The notes beneath the pieces were generated by a model. That model was not told the origin of the DNA. It searched no databases and saw only the letters and a list, made by a program, of their open reading frames with translations. A stretch of DNA of 64,000 nt from Verrucomicrobiia bacterium (lineage in GTDB: Bacteria > Verrucomicrobiota > Verrucomicrobiia > Palsa-1439), in contig JAJVHY010000001.1 of the NCBI GenBank assembly GCA_022072455.1, positions 3,832 to 67,831 on the forward strand. Reading direction: 5' to 3'. This document shows positions 40,595 through 64,000 of this stretch, one piece after another. The stretch's first letter is position 1. Every line of letters starts with the position of its first letter. The position numbers and the translations under genes were made by a program.

Positions 40595-40686
40595 GGCCCG
40601 ACCATACCGGCCCTGACCGAAAAAGACAGGAAAATGATTCTTTCCAATCTGGCGGCACCGGCGACCTTGCGCTAGGGTTTGCGTCC

Positions 40687-41499
40687 ATGACGATCTTCAT
40701 CTCGGCGCAGCAATGGGCGCAGTACGAGCGCGACGGCTTCCTCAAACTCGGCCAAGTTCTCAACCCCGCGGAACTTCACGCGTTGCAGCAGCGCATTGAC
40801 GACATCATGCTCGGCAAGGCGCGTGTGGACTACGACCGGATGCTGATGCAACTCGACAGCGAATCCGGCAAGTACGAGGATGCCGGCGTCCAGTCTCGTG
40901 GCCACAAAGGGGCCACTATCAATTACCGGAAAATTCAGGAGCTGGAATTCGATCCGCTCTTCCTCGCCTACATGCAACGTCCCATCTTTCGGGAAATCTG
41001 TGAACACGTCTACGGCAGCGACACGCCGGTTGCCGCCTTTCGCGCGATGTTCATGAACAAGCCAGCCCGCAAGGGCACTTTCCTGCCTTGGCATCAGGAC
41101 CGCTGGACTTACCTCGACCGCGACCCGCAAATCACAGTCTGGACTGCTCTCGACCCGGCCACAGTAGGCAACGGCTGTGTGCAAGTTGTGCCGGGCAGTC
41201 ACAAGTTCGGGCTGATCAATCCATCCCACAGCTCAGGTTTCCTGACCAAGGAACAAGCCGCCCAGCATGCGACCCCCGATAAGATCGTGTATCTCGAACT
41301 CCAACCGGGCGAAGTTGCGTTGTTGCACAATTATCTCCTCCACGCCTCCGATGTGAACCGCACCGACACCTCGCGCCGGGCGTTCAGCGTCTGCTACATG
41401 GATGCGCGCACCGTGACAACCAACAACGAGAAGTACTCGACCATCTTCGGCGCCGACGCGTTACGAGTCGAAGATTTGGAAACCGTCACCACAAAGTAG
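40687..41499 (+). CDS. phytanoyl-CoA dioxygenase (PhyH) family Fe(II)/2-oxoglutarate oxygenase
   Basis: HQD...H facial triad context (LPWHQDRW..., VPGSHKFG). Confidence 0.8.
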   Translation: MTIFISAQQWAQYERDGFLKLGQVLNPAELHALQQRIDDIMLGKARVDYDRMLMQLDSESGKYEDAGVQSRGHKGATINYRKIQELEFDPLFLAYMQRPIFREICEHVYGSDTPVAAFRAMFMNKPARKGTFLPWHQDRWTYLDRDPQITVWTALDPATVGNGCVQVVPGSHKFGLINPSHSSGFLTKEQAAQHATPDKIVYLELQPGEVALLHNYLLHASDVNRTDTSRRAFSVCYMDARTVTTNNEKYSTIFGADALRVEDLETVTTK

Positions 41500-41510
41500 G
41501 GCGCGCGTAG

Positions 41511-43358
41511 TTACTTCTTGGCGTAGTAGTCGAAATCAATTCCGTTGGACCAAAACCAGCGCTTGAAAGCGTAATTGATTGCATCGCGGAACCGATTGCT
41601 ATCGCGAATGACGACGGCTTTCGTCAGCGGCGCAATCAAGGGGTCCCATTGCTGCCGGCCCAGCACATCATCTGGCAGAAATACCAAGACATTCCGCTGC
41701 ATATGAAAATACTGGAGGTACCGCCAGTGGACAGCCATCAACTCATCCACAATTTTCTTCCGGCGCCGCAACTCGCCCACAAACCGTCGCACCCGCGAAC
41801 GCAACTGGCCGGCCGGCTGATACCCGCTGGCCTCGAATAACTCGCGCGACTCAACCACCAACGCATGGTCAGGACCAGCCACCTTCATCAACTGATCCAT
41901 TGCCGCCCGGTCATGCAACAACTGCCACCGGTCCCGTGCATCCCGATATCGCGGCAGCCGGCGTTTCAACGCGCGCGCTTTACGCAGCAGGCGCGCGACG
42001 GTTTTCGGGTTGGCCTGCAGCAACGCCTTCGCCCCCCAAGTCGTCTCCAAGCCGACTAGTAAATCCATCGCATCAAGCACGTTCGCCTGACCGAAGTAAT
42101 ACCGGCTATAATCGGCGAGAATCCCGGCAACGTCACAATCCGGATCCCACAGTCGCGCCGCGTAGACGGCGGCGTTGGCGTCGGTGTAAATGCCTTCCGA
42201 GTACAACTGCGTTCCCCACCCTGCCCGCGCGACTCGTTGCGCTTCCGCCGCCATCCGCTGCGGTGCCGGGTTCGCGCCATTGCACCCGTACGAACAGAAA
42301 TAACAGTCGAACATGCTGATCTCGGGAAACACGAAGCGGGAATACGCCGCCGGAGGCGAGTACTCCGCGATGTGATCGGCATGCGACATCAGGCCTTGAA
42401 ACCAATCCGCCCGCGCATCGCACAGCGCGTAAACCAACTTTCGCTCGGCTTCATCCATCAACCACGTCGAAACCACCACCTCAAGTTTGGGATTCGACTC
42501 GCGCGCGACCGCTGCCACCTGCTGCCCGAGTTCGAGAAACTTCTTTCCCCACCGCTCCGGTCGCGCCGCGCACTCGGCGCAACCACACCCACCCGGATCA
42601 TACGGCCAGTGGATGAGCACATCGAATGGACTCAGCAACTTCATGACTTGCCGGCGATTCTCCAGGATTAACGCAAGGCCGGCGGGTTTGGCCGGGCAAA
42701 TCTGACTGTATTGATAAAAAGCGCCATGCCGCGCCCGCGGATCAGCGAGCAGTTCCACTGGCGGCTGATAATGAAAGCCCTCATTCCCCACGGCACCGGT
42801 CGCGACTTTCATTCCGCATGCCCGCGCCGTCTCGATCATCCGATTCAACCGGGCGATCATCTTCGAGCCGCGACTTCTTGGGTCGCACCAAAACCCGTGC
42901 GGAAACCAATTCATATCAAACCAGAACATCCACCCATCGAACCCCCACAACGCCATCTCCTCAATGTAGCTCTCGACGTGCTCAATGGGCGCCGCCTCGT
43001 AGAAGTTATTGAAGTGCGTTGCGAAATACACCCCCCGGTCATACACCGCCGGCGTCCGCGTCACGTTCAATTTCGGCATCGCGACCCGCGTCGGCTCGAA
43101 CACCAACGTCCGCAACAACTGCCCCACCCCATATAACACCCCATGCCCATCCGCACCCCGCAATGTCACGGTCTTGCCGGCGGTCGCGAACGCGTACGCT
43201 TGCCGGGGCATCCCCGGCTCGAGACTGATGGACAATTCCCAATCGCCCGTCGCCCCCAACTTCACTCGCGTCCGGTCGTTCCACCGACTCCGCAACAACA
43301 CCACCGCTTTCGCGACCAGCTTGTCCTCGTGTCCGGCAACCGTCAGTTTCACCCTCAT
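41511..43358 (-). CDS. hypothetical protein, possibly TIM-barrel glycoside-hydrolase-like
   Basis: 615 aa, no signal peptide. Aromatic-rich segment WGFDGWMFWFDMNWFPHGFW. No confident family. Confidence 0.45.
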   Translation of the reverse strand: MRVKLTVAGHEDKLVAKAVVLLRSRWNDRTRVKLGATGDWELSISLEPGMPRQAYAFATAGKTVTLRGADGHGVLYGVGQLLRTLVFEPTRVAMPKLNVTRTPAVYDRGVYFATHFNNFYEAAPIEHVESYIEEMALWGFDGWMFWFDMNWFPHGFWCDPRSRGSKMIARLNRMIETARACGMKVATGAVGNEGFHYQPPVELLADPRARHGAFYQYSQICPAKPAGLALILENRRQVMKLLSPFDVLIHWPYDPGGCGCAECAARPERWGKKFLELGQQVAAVARESNPKLEVVVSTWLMDEAERKLVYALCDARADWFQGLMSHADHIAEYSPPAAYSRFVFPEISMFDCYFCSYGCNGANPAPQRMAAEAQRVARAGWGTQLYSEGIYTDANAAVYAARLWDPDCDVAGILADYSRYYFGQANVLDAMDLLVGLETTWGAKALLQANPKTVARLLRKARALKRRLPRYRDARDRWQLLHDRAAMDQLMKVAGPDHALVVESRELFEASGYQPAGQLRSRVRRFVGELRRRKKIVDELMAVHWRYLQYFHMQRNVLVFLPDDVLGRQQWDPLIAPLTKAVVIRDSNRFRDAINYAFKRWFWSNGIDFDYYAKK

Positions 43359-44131
43359 GATTTCACATTGAAAAACTGTGCGGCGTTACTAAACATGATT
43401 TTGCGTTTGTCATTATCCGTCATGCGGGAGAAGAGAACCTTGCCGGCTTGCTCGGCCAGCGAGAACATCGGTTGATCCGAACCCCAAACGATTTGATCCA
43501 CGCCGATTTCTTTGACGAAATGTTCGATAAGATTCGTGATGTCGCGCGAGTAGGTCAGATCGAGATAGAAGTTCCGCGCCCCGGCCGCGGCATCAATATA
43601 CGACTGATAACTGTAATCGCTGCCGGCATGCGCCGCGAAAAACGCGACCGAGGGAAACCGCTTCGCCACCTTGTCGTAGCCAGTCAAGTTACCGGCCCAC
43701 GTGTGCGCGAGAACCGGCACGTTGCGATCACGGGCCACCTCCCAAACCGGATCGAACTTCGGATCGTTGTAGGCAACGCCTTGTTGATACACTTTGATCC
43801 CGGCAAACCCCGGCAGCGCGAAACACCGGTGCAACTCGGGCTCCATCTCGTCGGCGTAGTTGGCGTTGACGTGGACGTAGCCGAAGAATCGTCCCGGATG
43901 ACGTGCGATCAACTCCGCGACTGCGTCGTTCCCCCGCCGGACATCGCCGGCAATGCCGTCCATGGAACTGCAGGCCACGTACTTCACACCGACCCGGTCA
44001 TTCTCCGCCAGCCAGTCGTGCTCCGAATATTTATCGTACAACGCCCACTGACCGAGGTGCGTGTGCATGTCAAACACCGGAAAATCGAGCTGCTTCCCGG
44101 CACGACCGTACTGCACTAGCTCATCGCTCAC
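43355..44131 (-). CDS. amidohydrolase-2 family metal-dependent hydrolase (TIM barrel)
   Basis: N-terminal FDMHTHL, ...HAGSDYS..., D near C-terminus (WGSDQP). Confidence 0.75.
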   Translation of the reverse strand: MSDELVQYGRAGKQLDFPVFDMHTHLGQWALYDKYSEHDWLAENDRVGVKYVACSSMDGIAGDVRRGNDAVAELIARHPGRFFGYVHVNANYADEMEPELHRCFALPGFAGIKVYQQGVAYNDPKFDPVWEVARDRNVPVLAHTWAGNLTGYDKVAKRFPSVAFFAAHAGSDYSYQSYIDAAAGARNFYLDLTYSRDITNLIEHFVKEIGVDQIVWGSDQPMFSLAEQAGKVLFSRMTDNDKRKIMFSNAAQFFNVKS

Positions 44132-44892
44132 AGACGCACCTCATTCATCAATTGTTGGATGTTACCGGCGAAAATCTTTTGTTTGGCTTCGTCGTCGAGT
44201 TGGGAATAGGAGACCATCGCAATCGCGCCACCGGGGGCGTTGAAGGGCAGCCCCGACGCGAACAGCATTCGCTCCGGGCCGAAATGCTGGACGAATCGTT
44301 CCGGCGCAAGCGTTGTGCAATAGTAATTCGTACAAATCCGTAGCTCGCGATGCCGGCGTAAGAGCGGGAAGAGATGCGCGTCCGCCCGGTAACCAATCCC
44401 TGTTAGTACCAACTTTAACTCAGGAAACGCGCTGCACATCCGGTGCACGTCGTCGTAACTCACCCCGCCATCCATGATCTGCACGAACAACGGGAGCCGG
44501 TGCGCGACGCACAAGGCCAACAAGTCATCAATCATCCACGACGCCATGCCGTGCGATTGCCAAGTCGGTCGCAACCAAGCTGCCTTCGCGCCCGCTGCGC
44601 GCATCGCAGCGAGATAATCGACCGGCGCCGGATCGTTGTTGTACGTTTGAGGAGCCAACAGGAATGCCGGCACGAACCGCGAATCGCCGTTGATTTCCCG
44701 CAAGAGACTGACGTTTGCGTTGGTCGCGCTCACAAAAGGGAGTTGCCGGTGAACCAACGCGGAATCAATTCCGCAGTAATCCAGAATCGCGATGATCTCA
44801 GCCGTCGTCCCCGGCAAGATTGGATTGCGCCAGCCCCACGGCCCAAGCCCGACACACGCGTCGATGATTTTCACTGCGCGTACACCTCGCAC
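44128..44892 (-). CDS. amidohydrolase-2-like protein (second copy, divergent)
   Basis: Similar length and architecture to the neighbouring amidohydrolase. Weaker motif conservation. Confidence 0.5.
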   Translation of the reverse strand: MRGVRAVKIIDACVGLGPWGWRNPILPGTTAEIIAILDYCGIDSALVHRQLPFVSATNANVSLLREINGDSRFVPAFLLAPQTYNNDPAPVDYLAAMRAAGAKAAWLRPTWQSHGMASWMIDDLLALCVAHRLPLFVQIMDGGVSYDDVHRMCSAFPELKLVLTGIGYRADAHLFPLLRRHRELRICTNYYCTTLAPERFVQHFGPERMLFASGLPFNAPGGAIAMVSYSQLDDEAKQKIFAGNIQQLMNEVRL

Positions 44893-46088
44893 ACCTTGAG
44901 AATCCCGGCCGCCATCTCGTCAATGTCCCGGTCGCTGTAAAACTGCCCCAGCATGACTTGGATACCGGTTTCCAAGAGGCGTTTATGCGTTGGCGTGTCC
45001 TCGATGTTGTACCGCCGGTCGCCCAACGGATATTGCGCACGCTCATCGTTCAACCACGGTCGCACCGACCGGGTCTGAAACAGCCCGCTGCCGACGAGAT
45101 CATATTTCGCATACGAACAAGCATTCACGCCTTCAGCCGCAATTGCTTTCGCGATTTCATCACGTTTCGCGGCATCCTCGACGATCAGCAACGTCCACCA
45201 ATAACTCACGTAAGCGCCGGGAATCGCCGGCATCATCCGTGCGCCTTTCAGATCGGCCAGTTGCCGGGTCAGGCGCTCACCGAGTTCATGATGACGGCTC
45301 GTGATGCGGTCAACAATTTCCAACTGCGCGCACGCGACGGCCCCCTGCAACTCCGTCATCCGGTAATTCATTCCGAAATGCGCTTTGCTTAACGTCCCAC
45401 CAAAAAGCCGGTCGTAATGTTTGTCCGCATAATTGCTCACGCGCCGGTAAAGCTCGGCGTCGTTCAAGGCGACAAATCCGCCGTCGCCGGTTGAGATGTG
45501 TTTGAAATCGTTCGTCGAAAAACAGCCGGCCGTGCCAAACGCGCCGACTTGCCGGCCATTCAACTTCGTCCCCCATGATTGCGCGCAATCTTCGACGACT
45601 GCGATCCCGCGCGGTTGGCAGAACGCAACAATCGCATCGACCGGCGCCGGATAGCCGGCAATGTGGACCACGACGACCGCCTTCGTGCGCGGCGTGATCT
45701 TCGCGGCCACGGTCGCGACGGTAGGCTGCAACGTCCAATCGCAATCGCAGAATACCGGCACCGCACCTTCGCCGATGATGCCGATGACGGAGCCGACGTC
45801 GGTGTTGGGTGTCAGGATCACTTCATCGCCGGGCCCGATCCCGGCAGCGATCAACCCGAGATGGATCGCCGCGCTGCAACTGCTACACGCGACGACATGG
45901 GGCTGACCGGTATACTCACGCATCCTGTCGCAAGCGCATTTGACGAACTTGCCAAACCCATAGAACAACGTGTTGCTCGCGAGCGCTTCCTCGAGATACT
46001 GGCGTTCGTTACCGGTGTACCGCAACCCCGTCGAATACGGCGTGGTCTTGGCCTTTGGTCCGCCGTTGATGGCGAGACTCGCATTCAT
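44871..46088 (-). CDS. DegT/DnrJ/EryC1/StrS family PLP-dependent sugar aminotransferase
   Basis: Conserved ...FSTNDFKHISTGDGG... region (PLP-Lys). Start at ATG 46086-46088. Confidence 0.85.
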   Translation of the reverse strand: MNASLAINGGPKAKTTPYSTGLRYTGNERQYLEEALASNTLFYGFGKFVKCACDRMREYTGQPHVVACSSCSAAIHLGLIAAGIGPGDEVILTPNTDVGSVIGIIGEGAVPVFCDCDWTLQPTVATVAAKITPRTKAVVVVHIAGYPAPVDAIVAFCQPRGIAVVEDCAQSWGTKLNGRQVGAFGTAGCFSTNDFKHISTGDGGFVALNDAELYRRVSNYADKHYDRLFGGTLSKAHFGMNYRMTELQGAVACAQLEIVDRITSRHHELGERLTRQLADLKGARMMPAIPGAYVSYWWTLLIVEDAAKRDEIAKAIAAEGVNACSYAKYDLVGSGLFQTRSVRPWLNDERAQYPLGDRRYNIEDTPTHKRLLETGIQVMLGQFYSDRDIDEMAAGILKVCEVYAQ

Positions 46089-46251
46089 TGGTTGGAAGTA
46101 TTGCGGGATCGTCAACCAAGCGTCAAGCCGGCGCTGGACAAAATGCGATTCCGATCCCTGCCCTTGCACAACCTGGTGGTTCATGGGGACCGCAACCGCG
46201 GTCGAGTTTCCCAGTGACAGTCACTTGCGGAGCGATTATATACACCACCTC

Positions 46252-47532
46252 ATGAATAATCCTGAAGGTACCATTGCGGTGGTGGGTTTGGGTTATGTCG
46301 GGTTGCCGCTCGCTGCCGCATTTGCCAAGCATCGCAAAGTCATCGGCTTCGATATCAACGCGAAACGCGTCGCGGAACTCGCCCAAGGCATTGACCGCAC
46401 CGGCGAGGTCCTCGGCGGCAACCTCAAGCATCCGAATTTCACGTTCACCTCCGACGGCCAACTCCTCCGGCAAGCCAAATACATCATCGTCTGCGTTCCC
46501 ACGCCGGTGGATCAAGCCAACGTGCCGGATCTTTCGCCCGTCATCGGCGCCTCGGAAGTTGTCGGCGATAACCTCAGCAAGGGCGCGATCGTTGTCTACG
46601 AGAGCACGGTTTATCCCGGCGTGACCGAACTTGTCGCGTTACCGGTGCTCGAAAAACGGAGCGGCTTGAAACTGGGTGACTTCAAAATTGGCTACTCCCC
46701 AGAGCGCATCAATCCCGGCGACCACGAGCATACCGTGGACAAGATCGTCAAAATCGTGGCCGGCTGCGACGCGGAGACATTGGCGGACCTCGGCCAGCTC
46801 TACGGCCTTGTCGCCAAGAGTATTCACCACGCCCCGAATATCATGACCGCCGAAGCCGCCAAGGTCATCGAGAACATCCAGCGCGACCTCAACATCGCGT
46901 TGATGAACGAACTCTCCATCATTTTCGACCGGGTCGGCATCCGCACGGATGAAGTCCTCGCCGCGGCCGGCACGAAATGGAATTTCCACAAATACCATCC
47001 CGGCCTCGTCGGCGGACACTGTATCGGCGTTGATCCATACTATCTGACCTACCGGGCGCAGGAACTCGGTTATCATCCTGAAGTCATCCTCGCCGGCCGC
47101 CGTGTCAATGACGCCATGCCGATCCACGTCGGCGAACAAATCATCAAAGGCATCAGCGCCGCCGGCAAGCCACTCAAAGGGGCAACGGTGCTTGTGTTGG
47201 GGTTGACTTTCAAAGAAAACGTCCCCGACATTCGCAACAGCAAAGTCCACGACACGATCACCTACTTGCAGGGGTTTGGGATCAAGGTGCTCGGCTGCGA
47301 TCCGATTTTGGATGCGCCCACGGTGAAAAAATACTTCGACCTCGAACTCGTGGACTTCGACAAGGTCGGGCGAGTGGATGCCGTCCTGCTGGCGAACAAG
47401 CATGACGTTTTCCGGTCACTAACCTTGGAACAACTCAAGACGAAGATGACGCCCCCGGTCTTGATTGACATCAAGAATCTCTTCAACCACCAAGCCGCCG
47501 CTGCTGCCGGTTTTTACTACAAGAGTCTTTAA
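46252..47532 (+). CDS. UDP-sugar / nucleotide-sugar 6-dehydrogenase (UDP-GlcNAc/ManNAc dehydrogenase-like)
   Basis: N-terminal Rossmann GLGYVGLP. Catalytic Cys region GGHCIGVDP. Confidence 0.85.
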   Translation: MNNPEGTIAVVGLGYVGLPLAAAFAKHRKVIGFDINAKRVAELAQGIDRTGEVLGGNLKHPNFTFTSDGQLLRQAKYIIVCVPTPVDQANVPDLSPVIGASEVVGDNLSKGAIVVYESTVYPGVTELVALPVLEKRSGLKLGDFKIGYSPERINPGDHEHTVDKIVKIVAGCDAETLADLGQLYGLVAKSIHHAPNIMTAEAAKVIENIQRDLNIALMNELSIIFDRVGIRTDEVLAAAGTKWNFHKYHPGLVGGHCIGVDPYYLTYRAQELGYHPEVILAGRRVNDAMPIHVGEQIIKGISAAGKPLKGATVLVLGLTFKENVPDIRNSKVHDTITYLQGFGIKVLGCDPILDAPTVKKYFDLELVDFDKVGRVDAVLLANKHDVFRSLTLEQLKTKMTPPVLIDIKNLFNHQAAAAAGFYYKSL

Positions 47533-48092
47533 GACCGCTTCCGAAACACGATTTTGGTGGGCGGCTTGGCTGCCGTGTGACCGGCGACGATTGTCTTCAA
47601 GAGCGTGCAGCGTTCCTCCGCCCGCTGTGCGGCCGGCGAGCCGGGAATCTTCCCGCGTAACTCCTCGATGATTTCCAATGCGCGCACCGGGTTATTGAGA
47701 CGAAACTGATACAAATCCGCAAACTTGTTGTGCGTCATCACCAGTGTGTCGGGAGTAGTCGCCTTGGTACACGCAGTAAGCAACTCGACTTCGGCGGTCG
47801 GAATATCATCGAGATGTGTGACGGCAATCTCCGCGATCTTGACGTGGACATAGACATCTTGTGGATACTGACGACCGATCTTCCGGTATTCCGCGATCGC
47901 CTCATCATACCGGCCTTCCTGGAGGCGTGCTTCGGCCAGACTGTATTCCGGCTGCGCCGGTCGCCCATCGTCGCCGGGAAAGAATAGTCCACCAGCTTTG
48001 TTCCCCATCCCCCGCATCGCCGGCAACCCAAACACCAGAAACGCGACGACCGCCAAAACCACCAGAAGTCCCAACAAGCCCACCAGACTCAT
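47529..48092 (-). CDS. small membrane-anchored TPR-like protein
   Basis: N-terminal TM helix. One or two TPR-like helices (YDEAIAEYRKIGRQYPQD...). Confidence 0.45.
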   Translation of the reverse strand: MSLVGLLGLLVVLAVVAFLVFGLPAMRGMGNKAGGLFFPGDDGRPAQPEYSLAEARLQEGRYDEAIAEYRKIGRQYPQDVYVHVKIAEIAVTHLDDIPTAEVELLTACTKATTPDTLVMTHNKFADLYQFRLNNPVRALEIIEELRGKIPGSPAAQRAEERCTLLKTIVAGHTAAKPPTKIVFRKRS

Positions 48093-48856: not shown

Positions 48857-48919
48857 AGGACTTGCGAATGCCGCGTCAGTCGTTTACCAAATTCCCACAA
48901 CCAACACACGGAGGAAATC

Positions 48920-49921: not shown

Positions 49922-50019
49922 GACCGGCGATTCAGGCAGCGATGGCTGCGGTTCCTGAGGCTCTGGCTCGGGAACGAGTGGACAATCTTGCCGGAGGACT
50001 GGCGAATCCGACAAACGGA

Positions 50020-52393: not shown

Positions 52394-52404
52394 AACTCCT
52401 CAAC

Positions 52405-55463: not shown

Positions 55464-57508
55464 ACCTGATTCAGTTTCTCGCCAGGCTTAAGGATGACGG
55501 TATCCACAATTCTGAATTCCGCTGGCGCTAATTCAACCGGGTCGACATCGCCGAATTGGTGCAAGATGCAGCGGCGCGGATTCTTGAAGTCAATATTCTG
55601 CAAGCAGATTTTTCCCGCGTCGGGGAAATACGAATACGCGATATACTCGCAGTCGCCGTCTGGATGGACGGAGTCCGGCCCCGTGATCCAAACGTGCCCG
55701 CGCGAAATCCGCGCGATGTAACCATACAACAACCCCATCAATCCCTTGGAGTCAACAGTGCAGCCCGGCCCATCGTCAGTATTGAGTGCGCCGGGATAGG
55801 CCCACGAATTGATGAAGAACACCTGCCCCTTGCCGGACTTGCAGCGCAAGATAAATGGCCGGAACTCCTCGTCATCGTTGGCCAACACTTCGACGCGCGC
55901 TGGATCGGTCAGTTCGATCTTGCCGAGTTCCGCGCCGATGATGCCGTACCGGCGGGGAACGGCGAGACCCAAGGCGTTGGGCGTTCGCTCAAGGCCGGTC
56001 GCCCAATAGAAGCGGTCGCCAGGCCCCAGTACTTTCACACCGCACAGCGCGGAGAAGTCGCCTTTATTGACCAAGTCATCGACCGTGTAGTGGTGGTAGT
56101 TACGCGATAGATTTGTGGACAAGTGCGGGATGCCGAGACAAAGCGTGCCGCCGGCAGTCACGTAATCGACCAGCAGCGCGTATTGCTTCGGCGAACAGGT
56201 GTTCCAGCCGGAAAGAATCACTGCCTTGTAGTTGGCTTTCAGAAACGCCGCGTCAATCTGGTCCGCCGCGAAGCTGACAATGTCGACCATCCCGTGAGGC
56301 GAGCCGGCCAAGTGGAAGTTCTTGTTCGGCGCCAATACCGGCGGACGCGGATAGAAGACCGACTTAACAATGTCCCAACCACGCTCAGGAGCGCCTTCGT
56401 ACCAATCCGGATTCGCCTGTGCCAGACGGAACGCTCCGGCGATGGCGTTGTTCGGGGCGAATTCGCCGGCACAAATGTCATAGTTGCCTTTCGCGACAGC
56501 TACGGTCGCCTCCGGCTGACCGGCCGGAGCCGGATGCGCTTTGACAAAGTCATAAAAGTCGGAAATCTCCTTGCGATACTTGGCAGCCGTGGGAGAGCGA
56601 TAATCGATATTGCAAAAGAGTTTGCGCGCTTCGTCGATGTGCCGGTCCGTGATTTCCTTGCTCGTGTGACGCAAGCCGGGCGGAGTGCCTTCCACGCGGG
56701 GCATCGTGTGCATCGGCGAATCCGGGCAGAGCGAGGACTGGAGCGCCCAGTTGCCGCTTTCGTTAAGGATCAGCTTCGCGCCAGTCAAATACTTCAGATA
56801 CAGGCCGGCCTTGAACAAGGGGAACTTCAGCGGATTCGCTTGCGGCAGCCACGAATACCATTCGTGAGCCAAATGCGATCCCCACAACGGCAGATCGTAC
56901 TGCCGGTACAAACCGCGCGAAATAGCCGACGCCATCATCAGATGGCGGAATGCGAAATCTTCCGGCACCGGCACCTCCGCCCCACCGGCAATCTCGTAAT
57001 CAATGTAGAAATTGCTACTGGTGGCCATGACTGGCCCCCAACCGGTTTCCTGGCGTTCCTTGACGTGCGCGGCGACTTTGCTGAGCAACCTGTCCGCCAT
57101 GTCTTTGAGCGTGACGTCCTTCAACTCCTTGCCAGGCGGCAAGTCTTGGTCGTAGATGCCAAAAGAATACCGCTCGCCAAAATCATAGCCAATGTATTGG
57201 TCGCCGAATGCTTGGAACTGGGCGGAAATCTCCGGCGGTGCACTGGAATAGAGAAACGTCACGTACAGTCCCTGCGCCGTAGCCGACTTCGCCAGCTCCA
57301 GTAACCGCTCGCCCGACTGCCACAACTGCGCCGTATTGCCTTGATTGTCTTTGACGATGAGATTGACGCTCTCCGCCGCCGAGGGATAGTCCGGAGCCCA
57401 ATACGTAAAGGCCTTGCCGGAACATACTAATCGCCCCCCATGCTCATAAATTCCCGACCCCAAAAATAAACCACACGCCGGCAATTTGGTCTTCTTACTT
57501 TTTGTCAC
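55460..57508 (-). CDS. large hypothetical protein, glycoside-hydrolase-like (possible GH42-type trimerisation-domain architecture)
   Basis: 682 aa. Central segment KAVILSGWNTCSPKQYALLVDYVTAGGTLCL resembles the GATase1-like domain of GH42 enzymes. Weak assignment. Confidence 0.45.
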   Translation of the reverse strand: MTKSKKTKLPACGLFLGSGIYEHGGRLVCSGKAFTYWAPDYPSAAESVNLIVKDNQGNTAQLWQSGERLLELAKSATAQGLYVTFLYSSAPPEISAQFQAFGDQYIGYDFGERYSFGIYDQDLPPGKELKDVTLKDMADRLLSKVAAHVKERQETGWGPVMATSSNFYIDYEIAGGAEVPVPEDFAFRHLMMASAISRGLYRQYDLPLWGSHLAHEWYSWLPQANPLKFPLFKAGLYLKYLTGAKLILNESGNWALQSSLCPDSPMHTMPRVEGTPPGLRHTSKEITDRHIDEARKLFCNIDYRSPTAAKYRKEISDFYDFVKAHPAPAGQPEATVAVAKGNYDICAGEFAPNNAIAGAFRLAQANPDWYEGAPERGWDIVKSVFYPRPPVLAPNKNFHLAGSPHGMVDIVSFAADQIDAAFLKANYKAVILSGWNTCSPKQYALLVDYVTAGGTLCLGIPHLSTNLSRNYHHYTVDDLVNKGDFSALCGVKVLGPGDRFYWATGLERTPNALGLAVPRRYGIIGAELGKIELTDPARVEVLANDDEEFRPFILRCKSGKGQVFFINSWAYPGALNTDDGPGCTVDSKGLMGLLYGYIARISRGHVWITGPDSVHPDGDCEYIAYSYFPDAGKICLQNIDFKNPRRCILHQFGDVDPVELAPAEFRIVDTVILKPGEKLNQV

Positions 57509-59801
57509 GCTTCGTTCCTTTGTTGATTCGCTCCCTTGTCAGTCCACAAGCCGACTCCATCCGCACCGGCAAGCCTGGCGTCGCCGCCAACTGTTCCAGC
57601 ACCGGCAAAGCCTTGCGCGTCCCGCAGCACCGCAGCAACACGACCGCCTGCCACCACCGCGGCCAGCGGTTGCGTTCGACTGTCGGACCCACTTCCCGCT
57701 TCTTGATCGCGCGCAGCAATCGCGGTTCGACGGCTTGGTCGCCCCACGCCGCCCGCAACAGCGTGGCTTCCCAACCGGAAAACCCCGCCAACTGCCTGGC
57801 CCGGTACGCGCGCCAAAGCCCTTCAATCGGTTTGAAATCGCCCGGTTGAACCGCCCGGCCAAAATCGACAGGCGCTTCCTGAAGTTCCAGCGCCGACTTC
57901 AACCGCTCCCGCAACCGCTCCAACGGCACCCCGCGGCTTTCATCGGTCATCGCCGCCGCCCGACCGCAGACTTCGCCAATGCGTTGAATGTCACGTTGCA
58001 TCCGGAAACTGTGACACGCCTCCTCCGTCACCCCGGCCGCGCGACAGGCCATCCAGAGATTCGCCAAGCCTTTCGGCAACAGCATCCGGTACGGAATCTC
58101 GCACGCCGTCCGCGCCGCGGACAACCCGGCACAGCAGACGTAAAAGAACACATCGTCGCTCTCCAACTCGTACGCGGTTGTGTGGTTGTCATAGTGCGCG
58201 CCGGTAAACCCGACACAATCCGGAAAACGGCGCCGTTCAATCAAATCGTCCAGTGTCAGCATGTAGTCGGTCACGATCCGCCGGCCTTGCCGGACACCGA
58301 GCAACGGCGTGATGTAAGTCAGCCGGTTCACCGCGTTGAACACCGGCGCGGCATACCGGTGAATGCCCTCAATCCGCGCCCGCGTCAGGTCGGCGCTGTC
58401 CGTCGGATTCACGTGGCCGGAATCGGGATTCGTGATCCCCATCACATGCCGGCTGTTCTGCAAATAGAAACAACCGCACGATTGCGTGTACGGCTGCAAC
58501 CGCTCGCCCAATTCAAACTTCGCACCCGCCCACACCGCCAGATCTCCATCGCCGGTCGCGTCAATCCATGACCGTGCCTTCACGCGCCACACACCGCCCG
58601 GCGTCGCCACCAGAGCGGCCACCACGCGCTGGCGCCGCTTCTCGACGCCGCACACCATCGCGCCGAACTCAGTGCGCACACCGGCAAGAAACTCATCCAC
58701 GACAATCCGTTTCACGTCGGGATGAAATCCGCGCGGACACTCGTCCCGGCTCGCGAACAAGGGCATCAACTCCCGCACCCGGTCATCCACCTCCGCCTGC
58801 AACCCACCCGCGCAGCCATAGTAATAACTCGAAATCCCCGCGCCCACGCCCACGCCGCCGGCAAATGCCAGCGGATCGAACGCCATCACCTCCGCGCCCT
58901 CCCGCTGCGCCGCAATCGCCGCCATCACCCCGCCGGTACCCAAGCCGGCAATCGCCACGTCGGCGGATTCTTCCCGGTAAATCACCGGCTCCGGCTTCCC
59001 TTTTACGGTGCACGTTGCCGCAAGCTCTGCTGCCGCCGACCGCCCAAGCTCAAATCGCTCAACGAGCGTCGTTATCGGCTGCGCCACCATTGCCGGCGAT
59101 GCCACGGCGACGTTGGCCGGCAACTGGCAACCTGGTCCGGCGCCATACACCGGATACGGCTCGAAACTGACGTGGCTGACGAAACCGTCCGGCACTTCGG
59201 CGCGGAACGTTTTGAGCGCCGGCACGAGTCGCGCGAGAAAGCGCGTTTCCGTGCCCGGCATCTCGACCCGGAGAATCCGCTCGTTGGGCCAGTGCGACTC
59301 GCGCCGGCCAGGCCAGCGCAACTTCTGGAAGAACATCCGCGCGGTGAGACTTGCCGGCGTTTTTGGCTGGAGCGCGGGGTTGAGCAACCGCGCCAGCGTG
59401 CCGGTCTCGGTGGCATCAATCCATTGCTCGGCCACAAGTCGGCGCAGGCCAGACTTCGTTGCGACGGTCACGGCGGCGAGCAGGTCGCCGGCAAGCTCGA
59501 CGCCGACTGGGGCGACTTGATAGAGCGCCGGCAACTTCGCGTCCCGGATTAGTTCATTGGCGACGATCTCCGCCGTTGCGCCGTCGAACCATTCGTCAGT
59601 AATGCCGGTGCGGTGGATGATGCATTCGGCGAACTTGGCGAAGTCCGGCGTCCACGGGCCGGTCTCGTTCTGGAAGGCGCGCCCGCTTTCCCAGAGGAGA
59701 TCGCCACGCAAATCGGCGAGGAGCACCTGCTTGTCCTTTAAGCGCATCGCCGCCGCGAAACCGGCATAGCCTGCCCCGAAGATGACGACGTCGTATTTCA
59801 T
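57495..59801 (-). CDS. FAD-dependent oxidoreductase with two tandem FAD-binding domains
   Basis: Two dinucleotide-binding motifs (VVIFGAGYAGFAAA and VAIAGLGTGGVMAAIAA). 768 aa. Confidence 0.75.
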   Translation of the reverse strand: MKYDVVIFGAGYAGFAAAMRLKDKQVLLADLRGDLLWESGRAFQNETGPWTPDFAKFAECIIHRTGITDEWFDGATAEIVANELIRDAKLPALYQVAPVGVELAGDLLAAVTVATKSGLRRLVAEQWIDATETGTLARLLNPALQPKTPASLTARMFFQKLRWPGRRESHWPNERILRVEMPGTETRFLARLVPALKTFRAEVPDGFVSHVSFEPYPVYGAGPGCQLPANVAVASPAMVAQPITTLVERFELGRSAAAELAATCTVKGKPEPVIYREESADVAIAGLGTGGVMAAIAAQREGAEVMAFDPLAFAGGVGVGAGISSYYYGCAGGLQAEVDDRVRELMPLFASRDECPRGFHPDVKRIVVDEFLAGVRTEFGAMVCGVEKRRQRVVAALVATPGGVWRVKARSWIDATGDGDLAVWAGAKFELGERLQPYTQSCGCFYLQNSRHVMGITNPDSGHVNPTDSADLTRARIEGIHRYAAPVFNAVNRLTYITPLLGVRQGRRIVTDYMLTLDDLIERRRFPDCVGFTGAHYDNHTTAYELESDDVFFYVCCAGLSAARTACEIPYRMLLPKGLANLWMACRAAGVTEEACHSFRMQRDIQRIGEVCGRAAAMTDESRGVPLERLRERLKSALELQEAPVDFGRAVQPGDFKPIEGLWRAYRARQLAGFSGWEATLLRAAWGDQAVEPRLLRAIKKREVGPTVERNRWPRWWQAVVLLRCCGTRKALPVLEQLAATPGLPVRMESACGLTRERINKGTKRDKK

Positions 59802-61432
59802 AGTTCTGCCAGCAGAGAAGTGTGCGCCGGCAATTCCGCAGTGAGTTTACCATGCCGGACGGTGACCGGCTTGCCGGTCCAGAAATCGCGAGCCCGATCG
59901 CCGGTCACGTTCATGGACAACGTTCGCGGCTTGTCGTCCCAATTGATGAGCAGAACGCGGTTGGGTTGTTGCGTCCAATACCGGGGGTATTTCGCGGAGA
60001 ACAGGTCGAGAGCGATTCCGGCTGCGCCGCGTTTGGCGGCGACGGTGCGACGGATGAGGTCGAGGCCAACGGGATTGAGTTTGGTGAGGTCGTCGGAGAG
60101 GTTCACTGCGCCGCCGGAAATGAGCACGAGACTTAGCAGCGTGCGCGCTTCGTCGAGTGAGAGCGTGGAGAGAACCCAGGGTTCGTGGGGGGCGGGTTCG
60201 TTGGGTTTGACGAAGACCAGGCACGGGCGGAGCCGGTTGAGGTCAGGATCTTTGGCCGTGGCCGGGCCGCGGCAGAGCGCGAAGTCGGGATCGTTCTCCC
60301 AGAGCCGGCCGTGCGCCCACCAGCGGGCGGCGATGGAACTGACGTTTTCCTTCACGCAGTCCCACCGGGCGTGGATGTCGCTCGATGTGCGGACGGCGTT
60401 CACCAGCGCGTTGCCGGCAAAGAAATCGTAGCCGCACCCCATGATTTGCGCGCGACCGTTGATGCCGCGATGCGCGGCTTCGACGAGCCGGCGGACGAGC
60501 TGGCCGGGTGGCACGGCGGTGTCGGCGAAGACCGGCGCCTTCAACATCTGTTTGAGAAAGTCCAACTTGAAGTACCGGTAGCCCATGCTGGCGTACCGGT
60601 CGAAGAGCGCACGAAGCCAGCGTTGTGTTTTCGGCACGGTTGGATCGAGCACAAAGCCGAACCGGCGCATGCATTCGAAGGCGAGACACGGGTGGCCGGA
60701 TTCGCCTTTGGCGAGCATGTCAGTGTCCCATTGAGCAATGCGGGCATGGGGTTCGATAACGGCCGGGGCGAACCAGAGGCCAGGCTCGAAACCCGTTCGC
60801 GTCAGCCGTTTGGCCAGCCATTCCATGCCGTGCGGGAACAGCGGGTTGGCGTCCCATTCGCCGTAACAGTATTGCCAACCGTCATCAATGATGATGCGCT
60901 TGACGTGCCGGCGCAGGACCGGATCGGCGGCGATGAACTCGGCGTTGCGCACCACGGCTTCTTCGGTGACCGTCCACCGGTAATAGTCCCACGAATTCCA
61001 GCCGACGACCGGATTGAGTTGCGGGACGCGCTCCCGGTTTTGATCGGCCCAGGCTTCCATGAGTGCATGGCCGTTCGGGGATGAATATAGGTATAATGGC
61101 CCGCTGGTGACAGTCAGGTTGCGGACGCCGCGCTTGCCGGCAATGCCGGACATGGCCGAGGGGTTGACTTGCCGGAGGGGCTGGCAAAGTTGGAGTGTGA
61201 CGCCCTGCCGGGTGATCATCGTCTGTAAATAGCTGGTGAATTTTTCGTTGGCCGGCATCGGGATGGACGCGCAGCCACCGGCGGAACGGCCATGGACCAG
61301 GACGTGATCAGCCGGGATGTTTTTCACGCGCAGTGCGCCGGCAAAATCGAGCCGGATACCGTTCTCGACCGGTGATCGTTTGAGTTTTCTGGCCTCGACC
61401 GCAAAATCAAAACCTGGCAAGTGAATCATCAT
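59798..61432 (-). CDS. alpha-galactosidase-like glycoside hydrolase (GH27/GH36 melibiase clan)
   Basis: Motifs VVGWNSWDYY, IIIDDGWQ, YRYFKLDF. Start at MM (ATGATG) overlapping the upstream gene's stop (ATGA). No signal peptide. Confidence 0.7.
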   Translation of the reverse strand: MMIHLPGFDFAVEARKLKRSPVENGIRLDFAGALRVKNIPADHVLVHGRSAGGCASIPMPANEKFTSYLQTMITRQGVTLQLCQPLRQVNPSAMSGIAGKRGVRNLTVTSGPLYLYSSPNGHALMEAWADQNRERVPQLNPVVGWNSWDYYRWTVTEEAVVRNAEFIAADPVLRRHVKRIIIDDGWQYCYGEWDANPLFPHGMEWLAKRLTRTGFEPGLWFAPAVIEPHARIAQWDTDMLAKGESGHPCLAFECMRRFGFVLDPTVPKTQRWLRALFDRYASMGYRYFKLDFLKQMLKAPVFADTAVPPGQLVRRLVEAAHRGINGRAQIMGCGYDFFAGNALVNAVRTSSDIHARWDCVKENVSSIAARWWAHGRLWENDPDFALCRGPATAKDPDLNRLRPCLVFVKPNEPAPHEPWVLSTLSLDEARTLLSLVLISGGAVNLSDDLTKLNPVGLDLIRRTVAAKRGAAGIALDLFSAKYPRYWTQQPNRVLLINWDDKPRTLSMNVTGDRARDFWTGKPVTVRHGKLTAELPAHTSLLAEL

Positions 61433-62484
61433 TGGTTGAGCCTTTCGACGACCGCTTCGCCCAATTGCTGGGTGGTCAGTTTCCCGCCAAGATCGGGTGT
61501 TCCCAAACTCGCGTCGAGCACGCTTTCCACGGCGATGCGGATCCGCTGGGCGGCGGCGCACTGGCCGAGAAACTCCAACATCAGCGCACCGCTCAGGATG
61601 GCGGCGATGGGATTGGCGATCCCCTTGCCGGTAATGTCGGGGGCTGAACCGTGCACGGGCTCGAACATGGATGGGAATTGGCGTTCGGGATTGATGTTCG
61701 CACTCGAGGCGAGGCCCAGACCGCCGGCAATTGCCCCGCCGAGATCGGTCAGAATGTCGCCAAAGAGATTTGAGGCCACGACCACATCGAAGCGTTCGGG
61801 GCAACGGACGAAATTCATCGCTGCGGCGTCCACGTGCTGCTTGTCGGAGCGCACGGACGGATACCGGGTGCGAACTTCCTCGAAGATTTCGTCCCAGAGC
61901 ACCATGCCGTGCTTGAGGGCGTTGGACTTGGTCACCAGTGTGAGTTGACGCCGTGGGCGTGTCAGCGCGGTTTCGAAGCCAAACCGGATGATCCGCTCGA
62001 TGCCGCGGCGTGAGTGGATTGCGTTCTCGATTGCGACCTCGTCGGCGGTCTGGCGCTTGAAGCGCCCGCCGATGCCGGCATATTCGCCTTCGCTGTTTTC
62101 GCGGATCACAACCATGTCGATGTCCTTGGGCGACTTGTTCGCGAGCGGGGTCTTCACGCCGGCATAGAGTCGTGCGGGGCGGACACAGGCGTATTGATCG
62201 AACTGCTGCCGCATGGCGATGAGCGGGGCGAGCGAGATGTGGTCCGGCATCTTCGCCGGCCAGCCCAAGGCACCGAGAAAAATGGCGTCGAACTTTTTCA
62301 GTTGCCCCAGAAAATCATCCGGAACAGCTTGCCGGTGCTGCTCGTAGTATTCGGCCCCCCAAGGCAGGTGCGTGAACTCCAATCTGCAGTCGCCCTGCGC
62401 CGCCGCCAACACGCGCACAGCTTGCTCGACCACTTCCGGGCCGATGCCGTCCCCGGCATACACAGCGATGTTGAACTTCTTCAC
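61429..62484 (-). CDS. isocitrate/isopropylmalate/tartrate dehydrogenase family decarboxylating dehydrogenase (tartrate-dehydrogenase-like)
   Basis: N-terminal IAVYAGDGIGPEV. Metal/NAD region NLFGDILTDLGGAIAGGLGLASSANINP. Start GTG overlapping the GH20 stop (GTGA). The ORF-track N-terminal extension is rejected because it overlaps GH20. Confidence 0.8.
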   Translation of the reverse strand: MKKFNIAVYAGDGIGPEVVEQAVRVLAAAQGDCRLEFTHLPWGAEYYEQHRQAVPDDFLGQLKKFDAIFLGALGWPAKMPDHISLAPLIAMRQQFDQYACVRPARLYAGVKTPLANKSPKDIDMVVIRENSEGEYAGIGGRFKRQTADEVAIENAIHSRRGIERIIRFGFETALTRPRRQLTLVTKSNALKHGMVLWDEIFEEVRTRYPSVRSDKQHVDAAAMNFVRCPERFDVVVASNLFGDILTDLGGAIAGGLGLASSANINPERQFPSMFEPVHGSAPDITGKGIANPIAAILSGALMLEFLGQCAAAQRIRIAVESVLDASLGTPDLGGKLTTQQLGEAVVERLNQ

Positions 62485-64000
62485 TTGATGCACGATGGCG
62501 ACGCAGCGCGGCCGGTCCAGAAATTGTGCCACAACGTCGGTCCTTGATACGCCTTCACGAGCTTGGTTTCGAACTCGGGGATGGACGGGGTCTTGCCGGC
62601 GAGGTAGTCGCGCAAGGTGAGGCGGAGACTGGCGAGACGCGTTTGCAGGCCGCCGTACCGGCGTTCGAGGACTTCGAGGCCGAACGGTTTGTAGGTGGCC
62701 AGCCACATTGCGCGGTGACACTTCCAGAGTTCGTCCACGGCTTTTTGGAGTCGCACGAGGTCGCCGTTCATGAGGGCGGTGAGTTGTCGGCGATTGCCGG
62801 ACTTGTAGGCGGTGACGAGTTTTTGGCGGAGCGTGGTCTTGATGGCGAGGGTGGCCGCCATGCGCGCCGGGAATTCGAGACGGCCGGTAGTCGGCAATGC
62901 GCGGGCAAGTTTGGCAAAGTGGGCGGCGTGCGCTTCCGGCTTGTCGATCTGCGGATCAAGCAGGCCGAGCGCGGGGTCCTGCCACAGAATCCACTTACTG
63001 GGATTGGCGGCGTAGTGGTCGAGAGGTTCGGGGTACTTGCGGGCGGCAAACGTGTCCAGAGTGGCCGCCCGGCAATAGACGTCGAAGTCGGCGTCGCATG
63101 CGCCGCGGAAATTGGCGCGGAGGAGTTTGTCGTCCACTTTGTCGGCATAGCCGTGTTCGGCGAAATGTTGCAGTGCCGGCAAGGCGGAGAAGATGTCGTA
63201 CTCGTTGCCGTCGTCGCCCCAGAGGGTCAGGAACACTTCGCGGAGGTGCTGTTTTTTACAGGCGGTCATGCAGGCATCGGTGACGGAGAACGCCTTGGGC
63301 AGGAGCGTCCAGAACCTGCTCCACGTCCACGCGCCTCCGGCCATGATGGGTTCGGAGCCGAGGGCGCGGTGACGTTTGATGAACTCTGTGTAGAACTTCA
63401 CGTCGTGGTGGTAGTAGTCCCAATACACGAGTTCGACGCCCTTCGGGATTTGCGCGATGACCTTGCGGGGGATGTCGGCTTTGAGGTCGTAGTAGTTGTG
63501 CGTCTTCGAGCCGATGCGGAAATACATGTCGCTCCAGATCATCGGGCGCAAGCCGAGGCCGAGGCAGATTTTGCGGACGCGCGCGAGGTGGGCGTTGAGG
63601 ATGTCGAAGGCGCTTTTCTCGCCGTAGAGTTCCCGGTAACGGCCCGAGCCGATGCCGTGGGCTTCGTCCATGCCGATGTGGATGCGCTTGGAGCGGAACG
63701 GTGCGCTGGCGGCGCGAATCATTTTTTCCAACAACAGGTAAGTCTTCTCCTGCTTGGCGAGGAGGACGCTTGTGTTATCAACGTAATCCCGGTAAGCGGG
63801 CCATTGCAGGATTTGTTCGAGGTGGCCCAGCGCTTGGATACACGGGAACATTTCGATGCCGAACTTCGCGGCATACCGGTCGAGGCGGCGGAGTTCGGCT
63901 GGCGTGTACGCGCCGCGCAGGTAACCGAACATCGGTTCGCCCGGCACCTCATAGGTGTCCTCAGTGTAAAGCATCAGGACGTTGATACCCATGAGCGCCA
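62481..64000 (-). CDS. glycoside hydrolase family 20-like beta-N-acetylhexosaminidase catalytic domain (probably N-terminally truncated by window end)
   Basis: TIM-barrel GH20-like motifs (RIHIGMDEAHGIGSG, WSDMY..., LWGDDGNE). The ORF reaches 63992 with only 8 nt left in the window. Confidence 0.65.
   Translation of the reverse strand, partial: ALMGINVLMLYTEDTYEVPGEPMFGYLRGAYTPAELRRLDRYAAKFGIEMFPCIQALGHLEQILQWPAYRDYVDNTSVLLAKQEKTYLLLEKMIRAASAPFRSKRIHIGMDEAHGIGSGRYRELYGEKSAFDILNAHLARVRKICLGLGLRPMIWSDMYFRIGSKTHNYYDLKADIPRKVIAQIPKGVELVYWDYYHHDVKFYTEFIKRHRALGSEPIMAGGAWTWSRFWTLLPKAFSVTDACMTACKKQHLREVFLTLWGDDGNEYDIFSALPALQHFAEHGYADKVDDKLLRANFRGACDADFDVYCRAATLDTFAARKYPEPLDHYAANPSKWILWQDPALGLLDPQIDKPEAHAAHFAKLARALPTTGRLEFPARMAATLAIKTTLRQKLVTAYKSGNRRQLTALMNGDLVRLQKAVDELWKCHRAMWLATYKPFGLEVLERRYGGLQTRLASLRLTLRDYLAGKTPSIPEFETKLVKAYQGPTLWHNFWTGRAASPSCIK

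Follow-up and report, generated by a model that had tools for sequence, protein, structure and literature searches.

Glycan clusters of the Planctomycetota–Verrucomicrobiota–Chlamydiota (PVC) bacteria and the polysaccharide utilisation loci (PULs) of Bacteroidota combine co-transcribed, complementary glycosidases with AraC- or LacI-type regulators nearby. For the β-N-acetylgalactosaminidases of glycoside hydrolase (GH) family GH123, Sumida et al. (2024; PMC11087588) treat the DUF4091 domain as a hallmark of the family and the Asp-Glu (DE) motif as the mark of substrate-assisted catalysis, and the deep group NgaCa strictly releases the disaccharide galactose (Gal)-β1,3-N-acetylgalactosamine (GalNAc). 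In this study, we analysed a stretch of 64,000 nucleotides (hereafter the window) from a Verrucomicrobiia bacterium (assembly GCA_022072455.1, contig JAJVHY010000001.1, positions 3,832 to 67,831), which carries a glycosidase operon on its minus strand. The operon resembles the clusters above in its co-transcribed, complementary glycosidases and the presence of a regulator nearby; unlike them, it embeds a tartrate-dehydrogenase-type (TtuC) gene and a two-module flavoprotein gene, and no SusC/SusD, ATP-binding cassette (ABC) or major facilitator superfamily (MFS) gene was seen within or beside it. Among PVC bacteria, a locus of this type is nothing unusual. Of note are the protein family of U682, which matches no library searched, its statistically supported linkage to GH123L, a candidate distant relative of GH123, and the recurrent flavoprotein.

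The gene map was built from the list of open reading frames (ORFs) together with Pfam and NCBIfam scans. A preliminary description of this DNA had reported tightly packed glycan-related genes on the minus strand, and the genes lie where it placed them, forming an operon of at least nine genes from 50020 to beyond 64000. We regard this region as one operon because stop and start codons overlap. Five of the eight junctions are exact 4-nt overlaps (GH20C/IsoDH, IsoDH/GH36, GH36/FAD, U682/GH123L and GH123L/U450), so that the TtuC-type gene shares such overlaps with both neighbours (GTGA and ATGA); the remaining distances are -14 nt (FAD/U682), +11 nt (U450/GH109) and -29 nt (GH109/U379). From the first visible gene to the last, the operon contains:

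62481 to beyond 64000, minus strand: GH20C-like β-N-acetylhexosaminidase, cut by the window end, with its 5' part beyond
61429-62484, minus strand: tartrate dehydrogenase/decarboxylase-type (TtuC, IsoDH) β-decarboxylating dehydrogenase, 351 amino acids (aa)
59798-61432, minus strand: GH36-like protein (TmGalA-type), 544 aa
57495-59801, minus strand: two-module PF12831 flavoprotein (FAD2), 768 aa
55460-57508, minus strand: U682, 682 aa, with a predicted GH42-type fold
53754-55463, minus strand: GH123L, 569 aa, exported distant GH123-type candidate
52405-53757, minus strand: U450, exported barrel-less paralogue of GH123L
51131-52393, minus strand: GH109 homologue, 420 aa (PF21252, PF01408, PDB 2IXA)
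50020-51159, minus strand: U379, divergent BNR/sialidase-superfamily β-propeller candidate, the last gene

U682, GH123L and their linkage

By sequence, U682 is in no family of the libraries searched. The protein had no match in Pfam, NCBIfam or the PDB sequences, and a profile of 41 family sequences found none in the PDB at E ≤ 10. At least 475 relatives were found at 47-95% identity, none of which carries a functional name. A scan with one genome per species gave 151 U682 loci, and the 79 that were kept belong nearly all to PVC lineages (Kiritimatiellia, Lentisphaeria/Victivallales, Verrucomicrobiota and Phycisphaerae), together with two Bryobacteraceae and several unclassified metagenome-assembled genomes (MAGs). 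Apart from the MAG of the source, the closest relatives come from MAGs with the labels Verrucomicrobiota, Kiritimatiellia or Lentisphaerales, and several record names suggest freshwater lakes as their setting. We also searched the literature for PF12831, for oxidoreductases with flavin adenine dinucleotide (FAD) in glycan loci of PVC bacteria and for new families of clan GH-A, and no paper on the U682 family or on that of the flavoprotein came up.

The MAG of the source encodes a second protein of the U682 family outside the window (P0102, PCFJNLEI_02073; 725 aa, 53% identical). Elsewhere, up to four copies occur per genome (UBA1731: L025, L048, L074 and L078), or the copies stand as tandem pairs (L002, L090). 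The family is expanded, and its copies probably differ in specificity.

The 682-aa product had been described as a GH42-like unknown, and its predicted structure agrees with a fold of the GH42/GH35/GH164 type. The AlphaFold2 model (predicted local distance difference test, pLDDT, 92.6; predicted template modelling score, pTM, 0.93) shows a (β/α)8 barrel, an α/β domain of the trimerisation type and a β-sandwich. Foldseek placed it with GH35 7X87, which was the top match, GH42 5E9A and 3TTS and GH164 6T7G, at E-values of 1e-13 to 1e-16, a probability of 1.0, a template modelling (TM) score of about 0.55 (5E9A and 3TTS: E about 1e-15, TM 0.54) and 10-13% identity. These matches comprise the GH35 enzyme IaSGT (7X87), GH42 β-galactosidases and a GH164 β-mannosidase, and a GH35 exo-β-glucosaminidase (5GSM) was also among them.

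In clan GH-A, the acid/base is a Glu after strand 4 and the nucleophile a Glu after strand 7. The secondary-structure string of U682 shows a clean (β/α)8 succession. In the DSSP strand order, E112 lies three residues after strand 105-109 (strand 4) and N249-E250 follow strand 246-249 (strand 7), and all three residues are invariant in the 41 sequences. From the strand order, we infer that E112 is the putative acid/base and E250 the putative nucleophile. The middle domain Glyco_hydro_42M (PF08532) was matched weakly by 19 of the 41 relatives. In its model, U682 shares with GH42, GH35 and GH164 enzymes the three-domain fold and, as far as the strand order indicates, putative catalytic Glu residues after strands 4 and 7. 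It differs from them in its low identity, in a Gly before the putative acid/base where Asn is usual in clan GH-A, in having relatives almost all from PVC bacteria, and in the catalytic domain, as no match to GH42 (PF02449) or the GH35 catalytic domain was found among the 41 members at E ≤ 1. The model makes U682 a candidate for a new family of retaining glycosidases in clan GH-A. An apparent homology of U682 to GH123L in single-linkage clustering proved to be an artefact, and direct BLASTP finds none.

The interval 52405-55463 had been taken for one gene of no confident family. It holds two genes, 52405-53757 and 53754-55463, and these are the two tandem paralogous secreted proteins that had also been proposed, as supported by BLASTP, by alignment and by their signal-peptide-like N-termini. 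The longer product, GH123L, had been left without a confident family, and it appears to be a distant GH123 relative that keeps the catalytic DE pair. It matches PDB 5L7V/5L7R, 8K2J and 8K2F in the N-terminal β-sandwich and near the C-terminus. With a profile of 13 relatives from other genomes, the best PDB match was 8K2F (E 1e-8, in the N-domain), which is deposited as an oligosaccharide-releasing β-N-acetylgalactosaminidase; the C-terminal match to 8K2F and 8K2J is weak and collinear. The pair D371-E372 is invariant in the 13 sequences of the family and aligns with D361-E362 in the MDERP motif of BvGH123 (5L7V), in an alignment segment that is itself non-significant. The GH123 N-domain PF22680 was matched by 11 of the 13 relatives (best E 2e-10) and PF19543 by eight.

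GH123L itself scored 25.1 bits on PF22680, under the cut-off of 27 bits, and DUF4091 (PF13320) was found in none of the 13 family members at E ≤ 1. Because of these two results, we call GH123L a distant GH123-type protein and not a member of the family. Like the GH123 enzymes (Group 1-4 of Sumida et al.; 8K2F, 8K2J, 5L7V, 5FQE), it has a putative N-terminal β-sandwich, a barrel with an invariant Asp-Glu, a signal-peptide-like N-terminus and a conserved C-terminal YP...R-E...D-D/Y segment. Unlike them, it shows sequence similarity limited to short stretches, is followed in tandem by a paralogue that lacks the barrel and has a conserved partner in U682; a term search of PMC11087588 turned up no such partnership. 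Taken together, the data make GH123L a candidate exported β-N-acetylgalactosaminidase of a distant GH123 type.

U450 is similar to GH123L in BLASTP at the end of the N-domain and in the C-terminal domain only. The two proteins share the motif VLPFxLPxxKTYYD at the N-domain end and the C-terminal helical part, while the alignment shows that the central barrel segment bearing the DE pair is deleted in U450 and equally in its orthologue in the closest relative (L001). U450 is presumably non-catalytic, with a binding or accessory role. Its middle part (window 52999-53466) shows weak similarity to the C-terminal domains of two families of secreted proteins. The first, of 755 aa with tetratricopeptide repeats (TPR), recurs beside homologues of U682 or GH123L in 11 loci, and the second, of 354 aa, does so in five (for example L051:16486-18753, L070:1543-2607 and L169:3096-5237). 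A family of about 1180 aa without a Pfam match recurs in seven loci, including L001, L024 and L169.

The linkage of U682 and GH123L was conserved beyond this genome. L001, whose U682 is 95% identical, carries in succession the genes for GH20C, two unknowns, IsoDH, GH36, the flavoprotein, U682, GH123L, its paralogue, a small unknown and GH109. In 25 of the 79 genome loci, a homologue of GH123L (27-37% identity) is encoded no more than 10 kb from the U682 homologue; counting L001 with these, 25 of the 26 pairs share a strand, and several stand side by side. As a control, we used 80 loci anchored on GH20C-like genes, taken from a metagenome scan with the GH20C fragment (relatives at up to 62% identity). 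A GH123L homologue was found in one of them, and that locus also holds U682 homologues (25/79 against 1/80, Fisher's exact p 4e-8).

The flavoprotein adjoins U682 and/or GH123L homologues in L001, L051, L072, L080 and L169. It is adjacent to or near U682 in three Phycisphaerae loci and accompanies GH123L without U682 in L169. Elsewhere, homologues of the flavoprotein have as neighbours LacI or AraC regulator genes, a gene for an MFS_2 transporter, and GH2, DUF4838 and heparinase-like genes. GH20C-like, GH109 and GH36-like genes join the U682 set sporadically, and the tartrate dehydrogenase does so in L001 only. Since the synteny recurs, we take U682 and the GH123-like gene to be the conserved core, which the flavoprotein and secreted accessory proteins often join.

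The operon enzymes and the proposed pathway

The families first suggested for the other operon products were nearly all borne out by the Pfam, NCBIfam and PDB searches. The GH109-like protein of the Gfo/Idh/MocA type is a bona fide GH109 by sequence, that is, a homologue of α-N-acetylgalactosaminidases dependent on nicotinamide adenine dinucleotide (NAD+). It scored 181.7 bits on PF21252 (cut-off 27) and 30.1 bits on PF01408 (cut-off 24), carries the Rossmann motif GLGARA and matched PDB 2IXA with E 2.6e-88 over residues 5-400 and 6T2B with E 9.3e-68. Like Elizabethkingia meningoseptica NagA (2IXA), to which it is homologous over the full length, it has an NAD site of the Rossmann type and the C-terminal domain of GH109. 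Unlike NagA, it has no signal-peptide-like N-terminus and is therefore predicted to be cytoplasmic. GH109 enzymes work by a mechanism with NAD+ and a keto intermediate, and GH109 is the only keto-intermediate glycosidase demonstrably present in the operon.

The protein described as a GH20-like hexosaminidase keeps the HxGxDE motif and passed the cut-offs of both domains, with 137.6 bits on PF18088 (Glyco_H_20C_C) and 28.1 bits on PF00728 (cut-off 22.3). The catalytic motif reads HIGMDEAH, with HIGMDE at residue 107 of the visible part, and the orthologue in L001 is 81% identical and 624 aa long. The proposed GH27/36-like α-galactosidase matched Thermotoga TmGalA (PDB 1ZY9/5M0X) with E 1.6e-27 and retains YFKLDF (KxD) and RTSSD (RxxxD), which we take to be the GH36 nucleophile and acid/base motifs (TmGalA D327 and D387). 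Its score on the Pfam Melibiase model was 24.1 bits, under the cut-off of 27, and no signal peptide was found. We describe it as a candidate α-galactosidase or α-N-acetylgalactosaminidase.

For U379, the suggestion of a BNR/Asp-box protein is weakly supported. The protein has no Pfam or PDB match of its own; it shows two SxDGxxW Asp-box-like motifs, and BNR_2 was weakly matched within the U379-like region of two fusion proteins (P0363, P0365). The FRIP motif was not found, and with the catalytic motifs not found, U379 was rejected as a demonstrable sialidase. It is best described as a sialidase-superfamily propeller candidate to which no specificity is assigned. Its family is rare, with 207 representatives among 1.84 billion clusters. 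Elsewhere, the U379-like domain is fused to a sulfatase (P0378) or to a second, canonical BNR_2 domain (P0364/P0367/P0370), and these fusions hint at action on sulfated or sialylated glycans.

Signal-peptide-like N-termini were found within the operon on GH123L and U450 only and on none of the other seven products. Four of the operon enzymes come from families whose targets are α/β-GalNAc and α-Gal linkages. We consider it fairly probable, judging from the sequences, that the operon, which we call module A, dismantles a GalNAc/Gal-rich glycan by the action of GH123L outside the cytoplasm and by cytoplasmic trimming that includes U682. GH123L would cut at β-GalNAc in the periplasm or at the surface, perhaps freeing oligosaccharides, and the non-catalytic U450 would help it. 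The fragments would enter the cell by a transporter, and the GH20C-like, GH36-like, GH109, U379 and U682 proteins would trim them in the cytoplasm. For U682, we propose the role of a retaining β-glycosidase of clan GH-A that attacks the GH123L product at its non-reducing residue, for example as a β-galactosidase on Gal-β1,3-GalNAc, which the oligosaccharide-releasing precedent makes the obvious candidate. The tartrate-dehydrogenase-type gene would be a lineage-specific passenger.

Several observations weigh against this scheme. The two results that keep GH123L out of GH123 proper count here, as does the assignment of E112 and E250 by strand order. About two-thirds of the U682 loci are without a GH123-like gene within 10 kb, many of the contigs being short. 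U682 itself has no signal peptide, and about one-fifth of its relatives carry one, so that the picture of a cytoplasmic partner is not general. Pfam scans revealed no SusC/SusD, ABC or MFS transporter in or adjoining the operon within the window, and the import step is thus assumed. Moreover, the scheme gives the tartrate dehydrogenase and the flavoprotein no role.

As to the substrate, the host-type or microbial O-glycans mentioned in the preliminary description are one possibility among several. The set of GH109, GH123, GH36, β-galactosidase-like and BNR proteins would suit Forssman or globo-type chains that are degraded step by step. The substrate could just as well be a polymer with GalNAc from microbes or algae.

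The G/C skew changes sign within the operon at about 59.5 kb, where all genes are still on the minus strand. The plus-strand skew is positive over the GH36-like, TtuC and GH20C genes (59000-64000) and negative over the downstream genes (51000-59000). The switch could mean that the 5' part of the operon is of mosaic origin; L001 has two extra genes inserted there.

A second module and the neighbouring genes

The GalNAc/Gal theme of the early account holds for the glycosidase operon, while its single 23-kb island does not. The region is two independent modules. Adjoining or lying near the operon are:

48920 (approximate)-49921, plus strand: xylose-isomerase-like TIM barrel (PF01261, 151.7 bits)
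48089-48856, minus strand: TatD hydrolase (PF01026, 272 bits)
47529-48092, minus strand: TPR/BamD-like lipoprotein with an N-terminal hydrophobic segment (TPR families; TIGR03302 weak)
46270 (approximate)-47532, plus strand: nucleotide-sugar 6-dehydrogenase, TviB/WbpO-like (PF03721, PF00984, PF03720)
44871-46184, minus strand: DegT aminotransferase (Pfam)
44128-44892, minus strand: Amidohydro_2 (Pfam)
43355-44131, minus strand: Amidohydro_2 (Pfam)
41511-43358, minus strand: U615, 615 aa, with a weak GH20b-type N-domain
40687-41499, plus strand: PhyH-type Fe/2-oxoglutarate (2OG) dioxygenase (Pfam)
39728-40594, minus strand: AraC-family regulator (Pfam)

Position 40687 had been read as the AraC gene; it is the start of the PhyH-type gene, and the AraC gene lies beside it. 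Both belong to module B (39728-46184). The junctions DegT/Amidohydro_2/Amidohydro_2/U615 overlap by -22, -4 and -4 nt. In a contig from the JGI sample of L001 (L170), DegT, both Amidohydro_2 genes, U615, a U615 paralogue, PhyH and AraC are intact, on another contig than the glycosidase operon; that block is preceded by an alanine dehydrogenase gene and not by a UDP-sugar dehydrogenase. The L001 glycosidase operon is followed by unrelated genes. In the window, the TatD and TPR/BamD-like genes, which are housekeeping genes absent from the preliminary description, part the two blocks. Module B is a separately conserved cassette, probably under AraC control. Control of the glycosidase operon by this AraC regulator was dropped as an explanation, since the regulator gene keeps company with the DegT-U615-PhyH block. 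Genes of module B were seen linked to the U682 family in one place only, a Phycisphaeraceae MAG (L026, about 11560, minus strand), where a PhyH protein 66% identical to that of the window is encoded about 3.7 kb from a U682 homologue.

The N-domain of U615, of the GH20b/GH84 type, matched PDB 7BWG with E 7e-5. Some U615 homologues carry PF02838, PF16126 (DUF4838) or PF03648 (GH67N), and homologues lie in the glycosidase-rich loci L086 and L087. The DegT gene and the TviB-like dehydrogenase gene had been counted with the utilisation genes, and their best matches are biosynthetic families. The nucleotide-sugar dehydrogenase, which is divergent from DegT, scored 373.5 bits on TIGR03026, above the cut-off, and 407 bits on the TviB model, under its cut-off of 592, and is probably biosynthetic.

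The longest-ORF starts are too long for IsoDH, the GH36-like protein, the UDP-sugar dehydrogenase and the xylose-isomerase-like gene. For the last, a start at M30 (about 48920) is likelier because the longest ORF, starting at 48833, overlaps the divergent TatD start by 24 nt (48833-48856). A tblastn search found no homologue of this gene in L001 or in any other U682-anchored locus. The TatD, BamD-like, xylose-isomerase-like and UDP-sugar dehydrogenase genes are neighbours and not demonstrated operon members.

The window has a G+C content of about 59%, and two of its products are 100% identical to annotated proteins of a MAG named 'Verrucomicrobiae bacterium' (locus tags PCFJNLEI_00048 and PCFJNLEI_00061). 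Its first 39 kb contain housekeeping genes (a type II secretion/pilus cluster, ParB, a thiolase, proteases, elongation factor P (EF-P) and two tRNAs), and the glycan-related genes begin after EF-P. An Rfam scan of the window found the two tRNAs and nothing else. They are tRNA-Leu(TAA) and tRNA-Ser(GCT), in tandem at 37817-38046 on the minus strand, just upstream of a KpsF-like SIS+CBS gene and EF-P, on the housekeeping side of the boundary. A 729-aa ORF without a Pfam match (8528-10717, minus strand) adjoins the cluster of secretin, T2SS-F and sigma-54 activator genes (11.9-19.7 kb).

Alternative readings and implications

An oxidative route by way of a keto-sugar intermediate had been suggested for the TtuC-like dehydrogenase and the flavoprotein. 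Perhaps with the xylose-isomerase-like protein, they would form this intermediate, and the glycosidic bond would be broken by elimination, in parallel to the Bacteroides pathway BT2157-BT2160 or to DgpA/DgpBC. As in those systems, the surroundings hold a Gfo/Idh/MocA enzyme as well as a xylose-isomerase-like barrel, whose gene lies 100 bp past the operon end, and the GH109 of the operon belongs to a family that uses a keto intermediate. Unlike BT2157-BT2160, the Gfo/Idh/MocA protein is the GH109, which scored only 19.2 bits on the BT_2158_fam glycoside 3-dehydrogenase model (cut-off 750), and the barrel gene is in a separate convergent unit, with no homologue found in the other U682-anchored loci. 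In the NCBIfam scan, BT_2159_fam gave 18.5 bits (cut-off 650).

The dehydrogenase itself speaks against this route, as it is a clear tartrate-dehydrogenase equivalog by sequence. It scored 487.6 bits on TIGR02089 (cut-off 470.4), and matched Pseudomonas TtuC (PDB 3FLK) with 384 bits (E 7e-114) against 274 bits (E 2e-80) for Mycobacterium tuberculosis LeuB (1W0D). The protein also passed the actinobacterial LeuB model NF002898 (410 against 393) and might, on these scores, still have a LeuB-like activity. Moreover, the gene accompanies the cluster in the closest relative only. Two metagenome contigs carry a gene of the Iso_dh family, its product 42-44% identical to the TtuC-type protein, on the strand of a GH20C-like gene and 7-8 kb downstream of it (L111, about 10249; L129, about 8874); this may be chance, for example a LeuB gene.

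The flavoprotein speaks for the oxidative route in that U682 and GH123L keep it as a neighbour in different phyla and in that its structural neighbours include flavoenzymes of the fumarate-reductase and ketosteroid-dehydrogenase types. Its two dinucleotide sites (GxGxxG) are at residues 9 and 286, its second half holds a complete PF12831 domain (200.6 bits), and its C-terminal tail is helical; it is 100% identical to PCFJNLEI_00061, and most relatives are about 200 aa longer. Its AlphaFold2 model (pLDDT 92) gave only generic FAD folds in the structure comparison (TM 0.2-0.27), namely geranylgeranyl reductase, the fumarate reductase flavoprotein and aromatic hydroxylases, and its placement in glycan loci is the sole functional clue. 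With the dehydrogenase an equivalog found with the cluster in L001 only and the flavoprotein folds generic, we judge the oxidative route to be rather improbable.

The locus might also serve not foraging but the recycling or reshaping of a polymer that the cell makes itself, either an envelope glycan or an exopolysaccharide, with the DegT and UDP-sugar dehydrogenase proteins making the same amino-sugar polymer. Both genes lie within 4-5 kb, most operon glycosidases appear cytoplasmic by their N-termini, and the Pfam scans found no transporter or uptake genes of the TonB/SusCD type. However, the DegT block of the relative is unlinked to the glycosidase operon and lacks the UDP-sugar dehydrogenase, and in other genomes the homologues of U682, GH123L and the flavoprotein are found in typical catabolic loci, in the company of LacI or AraC regulators, an MFS_2 sugar transporter, GH2, GH78 and heparinase-like genes, which makes this reading very unlikely. 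It is likewise hardly probable that U682 is no hydrolase but a transglycosylase, like the GH35 β-1,2-glucosyltransferase, or a non-catalytic scaffold, in which case the GalNAc theme would rest on the classified enzymes only: 7X87, which heads the Foldseek matches, catalyses transglycosylation, and Gly replaces Asn before the putative acid/base, whereas many barrel carboxylates are invariant across the 41 sequences from several phyla and the gene neighbourhood is catabolic.

Degradation of a GalNAc/Gal-rich glycan by GH123L and cytoplasmic partners remains the reading that we favour. A bolder and rather doubtful idea is that U682 founds an unclassified GH family of clan GH-A, with GH42-type architecture and nearly confined to PVC bacteria, and is the obligate partner of a deep oligosaccharide-releasing GH123 lineage, with the flavoprotein as a third conserved component that performs an undescribed redox step on the GalNAc-containing fragment set free.

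In lakes, soils, oceans and guts, PVC bacteria have a major share in the breakdown of complex glycans, and much of their enzyme repertoire is unclassified. Activities assigned to U682, to the GH123L-type proteins and to the flavoprotein would improve the annotation of hundreds of metagenomic proteins. They could also show how β-GalNAc-containing polymers are mineralised.

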